Positions 11,246-18,767 of a stretch of 30,886 nucleotides of DNA are shown in pieces. The notes beneath the pieces are model-generated. The model was not told the DNA's origin. It worked only from the letters and a program-made list of their open reading frames with translations, and made no database searches. The stretch is from assembly GCF_003334765.1 (NCBI RefSeq), contig NZ_QOWT01000042.1, one strand, 5' to 3'. Position 1 is the stretch's first letter. Each line of letters starts with the position of its first letter. The DNA comes from Escherichia coli (lineage in GTDB: Bacteria; Pseudomonadota; Gammaproteobacteria; Enterobacterales; Enterobacteriaceae). The translations under genes and the position numbers were made by a program.

Positions 11246-11913
11246 AATAAAGAAAACCTTTTAACGCCAAAACAAAAAAAGTATTTCGTCGCGTAGTGTA
11301 AGCGATCACTTATTATATTTCCACAAAATTTAATCTATTTACAGTCCTGCGCGAGATTATTTCAGCTGTTATTTTCTGAAACTCTCAGAATAATTTCAAG
11401 ATTATATATTAGCCATTTTGATGAGTAATTTAGATTATTGGTGAACAGAGCGGCGCTCTCTGCTCGCTAATTCCGCAAGCCTGACAAAATCAAAGTGAAT
11501 AAAAATGCAATATAACAGAATAAAAGAAAACATCCATCACTGGTGCTTTCTGCTGTTAATGTACATTGTCTGGCATAAAAAATGCTGAAAATGACCCAGC
11601 TACTACATACACCGAATTCTCTACGCTTATAGCGTTACCTCACCCCCAAACTTTCATTAGTGATATTAAAGGTAAGGCCATATCTAATTGATTTAATTAA
11701 AAATAAATCATATCGGCATGTAAAAATCCACAATGTACAAAAAACGAGCCGTTACGGAATATTTTATCTACAAAAACTGACTAAATAAAAATTTTTCACT
11801 AATTGATTAGTCATAGCCAGCGATATACGCTATGCGAAAATGCAGATGGCAATGAGATCCACTGCTTTCATCTCCATTAACATCCCATTACGCTTTTATT
11901 AAGGAGCATTAGC

Positions 11914-12363
11914 ATGTTCTCACCGCAGTCACGCTTGCGTCATGCAGTTGCAGATACGTTCGCGATGGTTGTTTACTGTTCTGTCGTGAACATGTGTATT
12001 GAAGTTTTCCTCTCCGGAATGAGCTTCGAACAGTCTTTTTATTCCAGATTGGTAGCGATTCCGGTGAACATCTTAATTGCATGGCCATACGGTATGTACC
12101 GTGATCTGTTTATGCGCGCGGCACGCAAAGTTAGCCCGTCGGGCTGGATAAAAAATCTGGCGGATATCCTGGCTTATGTGACGTTCCAGTCACCGGTGTA
12201 TGTGGCGATCTTGTTAGTGGTGGGCGCAGACTGGCATCAGATTATGGCGGCGGTCAGTTCAAACATCGTTGTTTCGATGTTGATGGGGGCGGTTTATGGC
12301 TACTTCCTCGATTATTGCCGCCGACTGTTTAAAGTCAGCCGTTACCAGCAGGTAAAAGCCTGA
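11914..12363 (+). CDS. alaE: L-alanine exporter, small inner-membrane protein, 149 aa
   Basis: Track ORF with aaggag SD at 11901-11906; hydrophobic protein recognised as AlaE (YgaW). Confidence 0.85.
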
Positions 12364-12373
12364 CTCTTCTTTT

Positions 12374-12400
12374 CGCGACTGGCATCGCCAGTCGCGTCTT
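12374..12400 (+). terminator. Putative hairpin terminator after alaE
   Basis: 10-bp perfect inverted repeat cgcgactggc / gccagtcgcg (12374-12383 / 12387-12396) with loop atc, followed by tcttt. No U-tract on the opposite strand, so it probably does not serve ygaC. Confidence 0.4.
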
Positions 12401-12744
12401 TAACTGGCTTCGCCAAATAAACCATTCAAATAACGTTCAAGCGCAACACGCGAACTAAAGCCATGCGGGATACCGTAATGCTCGTGTCGCTCGCCTGCTA
12501 AATAGAGCGGAAATTGCTGGTAATGATCGCAAGTTTTAATATCGGAAGCGGGTTCAGCCAGTGTCGAACTGCGTTCTTTTAATGTTGGATGAATTACCAG
12601 AGCGGTACGTCCCATTCGCGCTTCGCGATTAACATAGACATAATTTTCCCCACGGCGGTAACCATACGCTTTCTGGGTTACCACATCGACAGTAAAACCG
12701 ACTTTTTCAAGTACGCGCGCCACCTCGTCTGGTCGTAAATACAT
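12400..12744 (-). CDS. ygaC: DUF2002-family cytoplasmic protein, 114 aa
   Basis: Track ORF; ATG (reverse complement) at 12742-12744; recognised as YgaC. Confidence 0.8.
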
Positions 12745-12895
12745 ATTTGATCCTCGTTATTATCAACCGCGGGCCTACCTTACCTGATTGCGCATTCACA
12801 ACGCTTTCAGAAAAGTCCATAAAGCCGCGATGAACCTCAGTTAAGAAAATTATGGTCTACACTGAAAATTACATCGAATTCTAATGGGGGATCAT

Positions 12896-13225
12896 ATGTT
12901 TAACCGACCGAACCGCAACGACGTTGATGATGGCGTGCAGGATATCCAGAATGATGTCAATCAATTAGCTGACAGCCTCGAATCTGTATTGAAGTCCTGG
13001 GGCAGCGACGCCAAAGGGGAAGCTGAAGCCGCACGCAGTAAAGCTCAGGCATTGCTGAAAGAAACCAGGGCGCGAATGCATGGTCGTACTCGCGTCCAGC
13101 AAGCCGCGCGCGATGCCGTTGGCTGCGCGGATTCTTTTGTTCGTGAAAGACCCTGGTGTAGCGTGGGTACAGCAGCTGCGGTAGGTATTTTTATCGGCGC
13201 ACTGTTAAGCATGCGCAAATCGTAG
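12896..13225 (+). CDS. ygaM: DUF883 (ElaB/YqjD-family) membrane-anchored protein, 109 aa
   Basis: Track ORF 12884..13225; ATG 12896 (MFNRPNRNDVDD...) matches the form I recall, ATG 12884 is an in-frame alternative; C-terminal TM segment WCSVGTAAAVGIFIGALL. Confidence 0.8.
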   Translation: MFNRPNRNDVDDGVQDIQNDVNQLADSLESVLKSWGSDAKGEAEAARSKAQALLKETRARMHGRTRVQQAARDAVGCADSFVRERPWCSVGTAAAVGIFIGALLSMRKS

Positions 13226-13255
13226 TGCAAAAATGATAATAAATACGCGTCTTTG

Positions 13256-13286
13256 ACCCCGAAGCCTGTCTTCGGGGTTTCTTTTT
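13256..13286 (+). terminator. Rho-independent terminator of ygaM
   Basis: GC-rich stem ccccgaag / cttcgggg (13257-13264 / 13270-13277), loop cctgt, followed by tttcttttt. Confidence 0.7.
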
Positions 13287-13289
13287 GCC

Positions 13290-13472
13290 TGGTGAATCAC
13301 AAAAATCCCCCTACCCCGTCACGCTCATATCCAGGGTAATTTCGACCACTATTTGCTATATATTGTGTGGTTGAATCTTTTTTCAACTACATCTAGTATC
13401 TCTGTATCAACAGAGAGACAACCCGACGCGTATCATCGCGCCGTATCTTCATTTTAAACGGAAATACGAATC
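13290..13472 (+). promoter_or_regulatory. nrdHIEF promoter region with candidate tandem NrdR-box-like elements and an AT-rich -10 (tatatatt 13357-13364)
   Basis: Located between the ygaM terminator and nrdH. ttgctatatattgtgt (about 13353-13368) and ctacatctagtatctc (about 13385-13400) lie about 32 bp apart, resembling the paired NrdR boxes of RNR operons; assignment is inference. Confidence 0.35.
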
Positions 13473-13718
13473 ATGCGCATTACTATTTACACTCGTAACG
13501 ATTGCGTTCAGTGCCACGCCACCAAACGGGCGATGGAAAACCGGGGCTTTGATTTTGAAATGATTAATGTCGATCGCGTTCCTGAAGCGGCAGAAGCGTT
13601 GCGTGCTCAGGGCTTTCGTCAGTTGCCGGTAGTGATTGCTGGCGATCTTAGCTGGTCTGGTTTCCGTCCGGACATGATTAACCGTCTGCATCCAGCGCCA
13701 CACGCGGCCAGTGCATGA
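13473..13718 (+). CDS. nrdH: Glutaredoxin-like protein NrdH (electron donor for class Ib RNR), 81 aa
   Basis: CVQC redox motif near the N-terminus; stop overlaps the nrdI start (ATGA at 13715-13718). Confidence 0.95.
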
Positions 13719-14125
13719 GCCAGCTCGTCTACTTCTCCAGCAGCTCCGAAAACACGCAGCGTTTTATCGAACGTTTAGGTCTGCCCGCGGTGCGCATCCC
13801 GCTCAATGAGCGGGAACGGATTCAGGTAGACGAGCCTTACATCCTGATCGTGCCCTCTTACGGCGGCGGCGGTACGGCTGGCGCGGTGCCACGACAGGTA
13901 ATTCGCTTTTTAAACGACGAGCACAACCGGGCGTTGCTTCGCGGCGTTATTGCTTCTGGTAATCGCAACTTTGGTGAGGCGTATGGCCGCGCCGGAGATG
14001 TGATTGCCCGGAAATGCGGCGTGCCGTGGCTGTACCGTTTTGAACTCATGGGTACGCAAAGCGATATCGAAAACGTTCGTAAAGGAGTAACCGAATTTTG
14101 GCAACGACAACCGCAGAATGCCTGA
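13715..14125 (+). CDS. nrdI: Flavodoxin-like protein NrdI (class Ib RNR maturation), 136 aa
   Basis: Track ORF; recognised NrdI sequence; translationally coupled to nrdH. Confidence 0.95.
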
Positions 14126-16242
14126 CGCAGGAAACGATGGATTACCACGCGCTGAATGCGATGCTTAACCTCTACGATAGCGCAGGTCGCATTCAGTTCG
14201 ATAAAGACCGCCAGGCCGTTGACGCCTTTATTGCGACGCATGTGCGTCCGAACAGTGTGACCTTCAGTAGCCAGCAGCAGCGCCTGAACTGGCTGGTCAA
14301 CGAAGGTTACTATGATGAAAGCGTTCTTAATCGCTACTCTCGCGACTTTGTCATTACGCTGTTTGCCCACGCACACACCAGCGGTTTTCGTTTCCAGACA
14401 TTCCTCGGGGCATGGAAGTTTTACACCAGCTATACGTTGAAGACATTCGACGGTAAACGTTATCTGGAAGATTTTGCCGATCGAGTAACGATGGTGGCGC
14501 TGACGCTGGCACAAGGCGATGAGACGCTGGCGTTGCAACTGACCGATGAAATGCTGTCAGGACGCTTTCAGCCAGCCACGCCAACATTCCTCAACTGCGG
14601 TAAGCAGCAGCGCGGCGAACTGGTTTCCTGTTTTTTGCTGCGTATTGAAGACAATATGGAGTCGATTGGTCGGGCGGTAAATTCCGCACTGCAGCTGTCG
14701 AAACGCGGCGGCGGCGTAGCATTTTTGCTGTCGAATCTGCGAGAAGCGGGCGCGCCAATTAAACGTATTGAAAATCAATCTTCTGGCGTAATTCCGGTGA
14801 TGAAAATGCTGGAAGACGCATTTTCCTATGCCAACCAACTCGGCGCTCGTCAGGGGGCTGGTGCAGTCTATTTACATGCTCATCATCCCGATATTCTGCG
14901 TTTTCTCGACACGAAACGGGAAAATGCCGACGAAAAAATCCGCATTAAAACACTGTCGCTTGGCGTGGTGATCCCGGATATCACTTTCCATCTGGCAAAA
15001 GAGAATGCGCAGATGGCGCTGTTTTCGCCTTATGACGTAGAGCGAGTTTATGGCAAGCCGTTTGCCGATGTGGCCATCAGCCAACACTATGACGAACTGG
15101 TTGCCGATGAACGCATTCGCAAAAAATACCTCAACGCCCGTGATTTCTTCCAGCGACTGGCAGAAATCCAGTTTGAGTCCGGCTATCCCTACATCATGTA
15201 TGAAGACACGGTAAACCGTGCTAACCCTATCGCCGGGCGCATAAATATGAGTAATCTCTGCTCAGAAATTTTGCAGGTTAACAGCGCCTCAGAGTATGAC
15301 GAGAATCTCGACTATACCCGCACAGGCCATGATATTTCCTGCAATTTAGGTTCGTTGAATATTGCGCACACCATGGATTCCCCCGATTTTGCCCGCACGG
15401 TAGAGACTGCCGTGCGCGGTTTAACGGCAGTATCAGATATGAGTCATATCCGCAGCGTGCCGTCCATCGAAGCCGGAAATGCCGCCTCGCACGCCATCGG
15501 ACTGGGGCAGATGAATTTACACGGCTATCTGGCGCGAGAAGGCATCGCTTATGGTTCGCCGGAAGCACTGGATTTCACCAATCTCTATTTCTATGCCATC
15601 ACCTGGCATGCACTGCGTACCTCGATGTTGCTGGCACGCGAACGCGGTGAAACCTTCGCCGGGTTCAAACAGTCACGCTATGCCAGTGGTGAATATTTTA
15701 GCCAATATCTGCAAGGGAACTGGCAGCCGAAAACGGCGAAAGTTGGCGAACTGTTTACCCGTAGCGGTATTACGTTACCTACCCGTGAGATGTGGGCGCA
15801 GCTGCGCGACGACGTGATGCGCTACGGCATATACAACCAGAATCTTCAGGCGGTGCCGCCAACCGGTTCTATCTCTTATATCAACCATGCTACGTCGAGT
15901 ATTCATCCGATTGTGGCGAAAGTAGAGATACGCAAAGAGGGCAAAACAGGACGCGTTTACTACCCTGCCCCGTTTATGACTAACGAGAATCTGGCGCTGT
16001 ATCAGGACGCTTACGAAATTGGCGCAGAAAAGATCATCGACACCTACGCGGAAGCGACTCGCCATGTCGATCAGGGGCTGTCGCTGACGCTTTTTTTCCC
16101 CGATACCGCCACCACTCGCGATATCAACAAAGCGCAGATTTACGCCTGGCGCAAGGGTATCAAAACGCTCTATTACATCCGCCTGCGTCAGATGGCGCTG
16201 GAAGGCACTGAAATTGAAGGCTGCGTCTCCTGTGCACTTTAA
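14098..16242 (+). CDS. nrdE: Class Ib ribonucleotide reductase alpha subunit, 714 aa, apparent TTG start
   Basis: Start as on the track (TTG 14098-14100, [20 protein letters not shown]...), overlapping the nrdI 3' end by 28 nt; aggag at 14082-14086; alternative in-frame ATG at 14137. Confidence 0.9.
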
Positions 16243-17211
<969 letters not shown>

Positions 17212-17325
17212 GGGTGTTATTTTCAAAAATATCACTACCCGCAGCAGGGAAATAATTCCCGCCAAATAGCTTTTTATCACGCAAATAATTTGTGGTGATC
17301 TACACTGATACTCTGTTGCATTATT

Positions 17326-17357
17326 CGCCTGAAACCACAATATTCAGGCGTTTTTTC
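17326..17357 (+). terminator. Rho-independent terminator downstream of nrdF
   Basis: Stem cgcctgaa / ttcaggcg (17326-17333 / 17343-17350), loop accacaata, then tttttt (17351-17356). Confidence 0.6.
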
Positions 17358-17469
17358 GCTATCTTTGACAAAAAATATCAACTTTCTCGATTTGCTCTCA
17401 GCCCTTATATCACGGGAAATTCCGGCGATTTGCTCGCATCAATATTCATGCCACATTTGCCATCAGGGG

Positions 17470-17497
17470 TTGCCTCAGATTCTCAGTATGTTAGGGT
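17470..17497 (+). promoter_or_regulatory. proU P2 (sigma-70) osmoregulated promoter: -35 ttgcct (17470-17475), 16-bp spacer, -10 tagggt (17492-17497)
   Basis: Hexamers read directly; they match the proU P2 promoter as I recall it (non-canonical TAGGGT -10), roughly 60-70 nt upstream of the proV ATG. Confidence 0.7.
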
Positions 17498-17564
17498 AGA
17501 AAAAAGTGACTATTTCCATTGGGTAATATATCGACATAGACAAATAAAGGAATCTTTCTATTGC

Positions 17565-18767
17565 ATGGCAATTAAATTAGAAATTAAAAATCTTTATAAA
17601 ATATTTGGCGAGCATCCACAGCGAGCGTTCAAATATATCGAACAAGGACTTTCAAAAGAACAAATTCTGGAAAAAACTGGGCTATCGCTTGGCGTAAAAG
17701 ACGCCAGTCTGGCCATTGAAGAAGGCGAGATATTTGTCATCATGGGATTATCCGGCTCGGGTAAATCCACAATGGTACGCCTTCTCAATCGCCTGATTGA
17801 ACCCACCCGCGGGCAAGTGCTGATTGATGGTGTGGATATTGCCAAAATATCCGACGCCGAACTCCGTGAGGTGCGCAGAAAAAAGATTGCGATGGTCTTC
17901 CAGTCCTTTGCCTTAATGCCGCATATGACCGTGCTGGACAATACTGCGTTCGGTATGGAATTGGCCGGAATTAATGCCGAAGAACGCCGGGAAAAAGCCC
18001 TTGATGCACTGCGTCAGGTCGGGCTGGAAAATTATGCCCACAGCTACCCGGATGAACTCTCTGGCGGGATGCGTCAACGTGTGGGATTAGCCCGCGCGTT
18101 AGCGATTAATCCGGATATATTATTAATGGACGAAGCCTTCTCGGCGCTCGATCCATTAATTCGCACCGAGATGCAGGATGAGCTGGTAAAATTACAGGCG
18201 AAACATCAGCGCACCATTGTCTTTATTTCCCACGATCTTGATGAAGCCATGCGTATTGGCGACCGAATTGCCATTATGCAAAATGGTGAAGTGGTACAGG
18301 TCGGCACACCGGATGAAATTCTCAATAATCCGGCGAATGATTATGTCCGTACCTTCTTCCGTGGCGTTGATATTAGTCAGGTATTCAGTGCGAAAGATAT
18401 TGCCCGCCGGACACCGAATGGCTTAATTCGTAAAACCCCTGGCTTCGGCCCACGTTCGGCACTGAAATTATTGCAGGATGAAGATCGCGAATATGGCTAC
18501 GTTATCGAACGCGGTAATAAGTTTGTCGGCGCAGTCTCCATCGATTCGCTTAAAACCGCGTTAACGCAGCAGCAAGGTCTTGATGCGGCGCTGATTGATG
18601 CGCCGTTAGCAGTCGATGCACAAACGCCTCTTAGCGAGTTGCTCTCTCATGTCGGACAGGCACCCTGTGCGGTGCCCGTGGTCGACGAGGACCAACAGTA
18701 TGTCGGCATCATTTCGAAAGGAATGCTGCTGCGCGCTTTAGATCGTGAGGGGGTAAATAATGGCTGA
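17565..18767 (+). CDS. proV: Glycine betaine/proline ABC transporter ATP-binding subunit, 400 aa
   Basis: Track ORF 17292..18767 trimmed to ATG 17565 ([22 protein letters not shown]...); Walker [10 protein letters not shown]; C-terminal tandem CBS-like region. Confidence 0.93.

Follow-up and report, generated by a model that had tools for sequence, protein, structure and literature searches.

The pair of NrdR boxes in front of nrdHIEF, the class Ib ribonucleotide reductase operon of Escherichia coli, is reportedly to be credited to Rodionov and Gelfand (2005) and Torrents et al. (2007), and it has also been described by Rozman Grinberg et al. (2025; PMC12176259). An NrdR site consists of two partially palindromic boxes of 16 bp, which are separated by a linker of 15-16 bp and share the conserved positions C4, A6, A8, T9, T11, and G13 (bioRxiv 10.64898/2026.05.11.724285). 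Isolated single boxes are not bound by NrdR, and it is the length of the linker, not its sequence, that matters for binding (bioRxiv 10.64898/2026.05.11.724285). In the cryo-EM structure of NrdR on nrdHIEF DNA (EMD-50819), each box carries one zinc-ribbon pair, and the DNA is sharply bent at both boxes. A published genome-wide FIMO search in K-12 recovers the nrdHIEF box pair, and NrdR boxes are described in the literature as overlapping the RNA polymerase site. The nrdHIEF operator is among the best characterised NrdR operators, and binding, mutational, and cryo-EM work has been done on it. Here, we have analysed a stretch of 30,886 bp (hereafter, the window), in which the DNA upstream of nrdH is, base for base, that of the published E. 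coli pair, with the published box positions, 15-bp linker, and overlap of the promoter (PMC12176259). Motif, conservation, a position weight matrix, and the published binding of NrdR to identical DNA all agree with the operator that a preliminary description had proposed, and we are nearly certain that positions 13353-13399 are the NrdR operator of nrdHIEF. This operator is already known and has been dissected experimentally, and its recovery brings no new biology. The re-finding shows that a real operator can be recognised from sequence alone.

The open reading frames of the window, together with the annotation of MG1655, give the gene order stpA, alaE, ygaC, ygaM, nrdH, nrdI, nrdE, nrdF, and proVWX. 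Positions 13200-13480 are 100% identical to positions 2800450-2800730 of K-12 MG1655 (NC_000913.3), and a single difference from MG1655 is found across window positions 10001-18000. The window is not MG1655 throughout, since the first ~60 nt do not match and the register is lost beyond ~21 kb. The boxes sit in the 247-bp spacer between ygaM and nrdH, 3' of the ygaM terminator (13255-13281), and the site that they form lies 74-120 nt 5' of the nrdH ATG. The coordinates of the features are collected in Table 1.

Table 1. Features of the nrdH promoter region and of the operon that it controls, in window coordinates.
Feature	Position	Strand	Basis
Fur ChIP-exo peak P87 (2798593-2798627, NC_000913.2), assigned to nrdH	~13321..13355		published; best consensus match 11/19
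NrdR box 1, TTGCTATATATTGTGT	13353..13368		core positions, matrix, published probe
Extended -10-like TGcTATATA, within box 1	13354..13362	+	putative promoter; start 13369 (SMRT-Cappable-seq 2800619)
15-bp linker between the boxes, GGTTGAATCTTTTTT	13369..13383		orthologue comparison
-35 hexamer TTGAAT, within the linker (predicted)	13371..13376	+	sequence and mapped start
NrdR box 2, CAACTACATCTAGTAT	13384..13399		core positions, matrix, orthologues
-10 hexamer TAGTAT, within box 2	13394..13399	+	invariant in 78 sites; 6 nt 5' of the mapped end
Main nrdHIEF transcription start	13405..13406	+	SMRT-Cappable-seq 2800655, +/-1 nt
Fur ChIP-exo peak P88 (2798743-2798772, NC_000913.2), over the nrdH start codon	~13471..13500		published; best consensus match 11/19
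nrdH	13473-13718	+	
nrdH-nrdI-nrdE-nrdF, regulated operon	13473..17211	+	open reading frames, MG1655 annotation

Each of the two boxes carries six of the six conserved NrdR positions. The layout of the operator is 16 + 15 + 16 bp, so that the boxes are 31 bp apart from start to start, within the range of described sites (linker of 15-16 bp, periodicity of 31-32 bp), and the 15-bp linker therefore puts both boxes on the same face of the helix. The location is that of a ribonucleotide reductase promoter, whose -10 is overlapped by box 2 and whose -35 is overlapped by the linker. This is the sole pair in the 30,886 bp with six plus six core positions and a linker of 15-16 bp; first-order Markov sequences lead one to expect 0.02 such pairs, and dinucleotide shuffles 0.07 even when one mismatch is allowed. 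When the Rodionov-Gelfand consensus ACACWATATATWGTGT is searched with up to 3 mismatches, its only match in the window is box 1 (13 of 16 positions). The preliminary description had suggested a scan with an NrdR matrix, and we built an independent one, for which the nrdAB and nrdDG probes in PMC12176259 supplied four E. coli boxes and no nrdHIEF sequence was used. Among 30,871 positions, this matrix ranks box 1 first and box 2 third, and it gives the pair a score of 24.2 bits; the best of 300 random sequences reaches 19.4.

The same description had outlined two boxes about 32 bp apart and overlapping the -10 region. Its first box, ttgctatatattgtgt, occurs once, at 13353-13368, and is exactly the published box 1 of nrdHIEF. 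The second, ctacatctagtatctc (CTACATCTAGTATCTC), is indeed present at 13387-13402, but its register is off by 3 bp and the true box 2 starts at 13384. In the frame 13387-13402, only 2 of the 6 conserved positions are found, 4 of 16 positions are self-complementary, and the nrdAB/nrdDG matrix score is -7.55 bits (rank 5375 of 30871); the frame 13384-13399 has 6 of 6 conserved positions and 10 of 16 self-complementary ones. The distance of about three helical turns stands, but its correct value is 31 bp and the boxes as first drawn would give 34 bp. The overlap with the -10 is borne out for box 2, which ends in TAGTAT, 6 nt 5' of the transcript end mapped at 13405.

The site is widely conserved. 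A search for NrdI with one genome per species yielded 80 Enterobacteriaceae loci, and in 75 of the 80 nrdH upstream regions the best pair has 12 of 12 core positions, a linker of 15 bp, and a start 118-122 nt 5' of the ATG. Of the five exceptions, four belong to the Klebsiella oxytoca group, where the cytosine of box 1 is found one position leftward, and NrdR tolerates such a shift of the cytosine in one box (bioRxiv 10.64898/2026.05.11.724285). The fifth is a Citrobacter locus (L042) with G, not A, at position 6 of box 2. Across the 78 distinct orthologous sites, both boxes show little or no variation at the six core positions; those of box 1 are found in 74-78 of the 78 sites, and its positions 1, 2, 3, 5, 10, and 15 are free to vary. 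Positions 2-16 of box 2 are almost invariant, as is GGTTGAA in the linker, whose remaining bases are variable, and outside 13350-13399 conservation drops off at once. The conservation of box 2 and GGTTGAA is stronger than NrdR binding requires because the -10 and -35 overlap there. Hence, part of the near-total invariance of box 2 reflects the -10 element.

Within E. coli, 251 bases around the boxes were matched in 5422 of 5426 complete genomes. There are two haplotypes at this locus: the K-12 type, with TTGCTATATATTGTGT as box 1 and ygaM directly upstream, is found in ~4032 of 5398 complete genomes, and the other type, in ~1366 of 5398, aligns only from inside box 1 onward. Two E. coli genomes of this other type (L082 and L083; CP082824 and OX030728) have TTCCCATATCTTGT(A/G)T as box 1 and a gene of the carboxymuconolactone decarboxylase family upstream. 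It is within box 1 that the two haplotypes pass from divergent to identical, and neither type has lost any of the six core positions. The allele of L001 had no match in a megablast search against the complete E. coli genomes, so this GTDB representative is atypical for E. coli at the nrdH locus.

Published experiments bear on this very DNA. The 57-nt probe nrdEF_Cy5_sense, used for MST in PMC12176259, is identical to window positions 13348-13404 with zero mismatches. E. coli NrdR binds this 57-mer with a KD of 138 +/- 32 nM in the presence of ATP-dATP and of 187 nM with ADP-dATP, and it does not bind with ATP alone (PMC12176259). Binding is abolished by G44C (window position 13396) and also by T12G plus G13T together (window positions 13364 and 13365) (bioRxiv 10.64898/2026.05.11.724285). 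In Salmonella, mutation of the NrdR1 box raised nrdHIEF expression up to the level of an nrdR deletion (PMC2892513). Against the operator reading, mutation of the Salmonella NrdR2 box alone did not derepress nrdHIEF; this box overlaps the -10, and the authors suspected that the mutant was affected by interference with the -10 (PMC2892513). Also against it, the proteomics of an E. coli nrdR deletion revealed no clear rise of NrdHIEF, which the authors explained by continued repression by Fur. No footprint or in vitro transcription on the nrdH promoter was found in the accessible literature, where the published transcription assays used PnrdD.

How could NrdR act at this promoter? SMRT-Cappable-seq has mapped two starts of the nrdHIEF operon, at 2800655 and 2800619 of NC_000913.3, i.e., at window positions 13405 and 13369. 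Relative to the start at 13405, the centres of the boxes lie at about -44.5 and -13.5. The -35 TTGAAT, of which TTGAA is invariant in the orthologues, is separated from the -10 TAGTAT by a spacer of 17 bp. This main nrdH promoter scores 8/12 against the consensus and was thus missed by the promoter scanner, whose threshold is 9/12. The scanner's only call, TCAACA-18-TATCAT at 13407-13436, is 3' of the mapped start and was not relied on. With the -10 inside box 2, the -35 inside the linker, and box 1 immediately next to the -35, NrdR on its operator is expected to keep sigma-70 RNA polymerase off the promoter; we infer from this geometry that the repressor acts at nrdH by blocking the polymerase sterically. 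The NrdR tetramer loaded with ATP (or ADP) and dATP sets one zinc-ribbon pair on each box and kinks the DNA. It spans both boxes, covers the promoter from -35 to -10, and would shut down nrdHIEF at high dATP. In the presence of ATP only, NrdR assembles into filaments or higher oligomers in which the DNA-binding residues are hidden; these cannot bind DNA, which would release the operon. Fur and IscR act on the nrdH promoter via other sites, partly flanking or overlapping the operator. The operator ties the supply of dNTPs, sensed by NrdR as the dATP/ATP ratio, to the expression of a backup ribonucleotide reductase that depends on manganese and that E. coli requires when iron is limiting and during oxidative stress.

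The second start, at 13369, lies 7 nt 3' of TGcTATATA in box 1, which is the right placement for an extended -10. We tentatively suggest, with more doubt than confidence, that the K-12-type box 1 carries an extended -10 promoter firing at 13369, and that a single NrdR tetramer could occlude two tandem promoters, one per box. Such a second promoter would be lineage-specific, because about one-quarter of E. coli and most other Enterobacteriaceae have a box 1 of the type TTCCCATATCTTGT(A/G)T, which lacks the TGcTATATA promoter. The supplement of the Cappable-seq study has no entry near the nrdH locus.

Other elements were observed around the promoter. The linker holds a dyad, GTTGAA-N6-TTCAAC (13370-13387), whose left arm is the -35 and whose right arm enters box 2; it gives no sign of a separate function, because the intervening bases and those of the right arm in the linker are not conserved. 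An inverted repeat, GTATCTCTGT / ACAGAGAGAC (13396-13419), spans the main start, could form a hairpin only in transcripts starting at 13369, and is conserved within Escherichia, not across genera. On the minus strand, SMRT-Cappable-seq gives a start at 13444 (2800694) that was assigned to ygaC, with a good -10 upstream, TAAAAT, which is the reverse complement of 13451-13456; the transcript would run antisense across the nrdH promoter, the NrdR boxes, and ygaM. In the 5' UTR of nrdH, at about +20 to +38, a GC-rich dyad, GACGCG-N6-CGCGCC (13425-13442), is conserved in Enterobacteriaceae with a variable loop. Folded as a hairpin, it has 90.8% of its cells paired and a few compensatory changes (CG to UA). 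The nrdH leader overall is not unusually stable (z = -0.14), and an Rfam scan of 13150-13800 returned only sub-threshold chance matches, with no family that fits.

The part of other regulators at the boxes themselves must be weighed. Box 1 and the linker could double as a type II activator site of IscR, for which NrdR and IscR would then compete. The literature reports that IscR activates the promoter through a type II site in which the -35 is embedded; such a site would cover the linker together with some or all of box 1. Yet, there is no match to the type II consensus with up to 2 mismatches in 13280-13420, and the left half-site CCxYA is missing from the K-12 box 1. The pattern AxxxCCxxAxxxxxxxTAxGGxxxT is uninformative here, with 74 matches in the window against 66 expected in shuffles. 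We regard a site shared by the two regulators as a possibility, and a rather unlikely one.

Much less probable is that the paired boxes are a Fur operator through which iron-dependent repression would take place. The operon is indeed repressed by Fur and is a core member of its regulon in the literature, and ChIP-exo peak P87 reaches 3 bp into box 1. However, the ChIP-exo peaks flank the boxes and do not cover them, and the functional Fur box of Salmonella is 309 bp upstream of the start (PMC2892513). We scanned with the 19-bp consensus GATAATGATAATCATTATC, a 7-1-7 motif, and the ChIP-exo motif, and included the 80 orthologous upstream regions. None of the three motifs places a confident Fur box in 13340-13410, where the best match to the 19-bp consensus is 10/19, a level reached by 1.9% of the window positions, which justifies the earlier caution about locating such a box. 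The best intergenic Fur-like sequence, at 13229-13247 (13/19), is outside the boxes. The window positions of the ChIP-exo peaks are approximate because they rest on an offset of +1978 between NC_000913.2 and NC_000913.3.

Some of the Fur-like sequences deserve a description of their own. The intergenic one, AAAAATGATAATAAATACG, starts 4 nt past the ygaM stop codon; it is absent from the listed ChIP-exo peaks, and its part of the spacer is unalignable across genera. The 19-mer AATCATGCGCATTACTATT (13469-13487) overlaps the nrdH start codon and matches the consensus at 11/19 here and at 11-14/19 in the orthologues. It coincides with ChIP-exo peaks P88 and P89 and is the only positionally consistent Fur-like sequence in the orthologues, a conservation that is confounded by coding and ribosome-binding constraints. 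The strongest match to the Fur consensus in the whole window is GATATTGATTAACATTAAC (775-793, 16/19), within the ygaQ pseudogene.

Least probable of all, and already contradicted by published binding data, is that the conserved blocks are a core promoter only (UP-like AT tract, -35, and -10) whose likeness to NrdR boxes is coincidental, with no role for NrdR: box 2 does end in the invariant TAGTAT and is conserved beyond the needs of NrdR, and the invariant GGTTGAA does hold the -35, but box 1, 5' of the -35, keeps exactly C4, A6, A8, T9, T11, and G13 and has drifted elsewhere, both boxes are selected by a matrix that was built from other operons, and NrdR binds identical DNA and ceases to do so upon single-base changes.

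An NrdR operator thus remains by far the best reading of the paired boxes, and it can be set beside the other described ones. In Salmonella Typhimurium, nrdHIEF has orthologous boxes, and box 2 likewise overlaps the -10 (PMC2892513). In the Salmonella orthologue among our loci (L078), the pair is 12/12 and its linker is 15 bp long, as in the E. coli window. Box 1 of Salmonella Typhimurium is TTCCCATATCTTGTAT, of the type that is seen in about one-quarter of the E. coli genomes but not in the window. In E. coli itself, nrdDG and nrdAB (boxes 1 and 2) share the layout of 16 + 15 + 16 bp and all six conserved positions, and the affinities of NrdR are similar (113-160 nM; PMC12176259). Box 2 of nrdHIEF differs by having C at positions 7 and 10, which gives a CATCT core where nrdDG and nrdAB have TATAT. 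The three operons also differ in the regulators that accompany NrdR, which are Fur and IscR at nrdHIEF, FNR at nrdDG, and DnaA at nrdAB.
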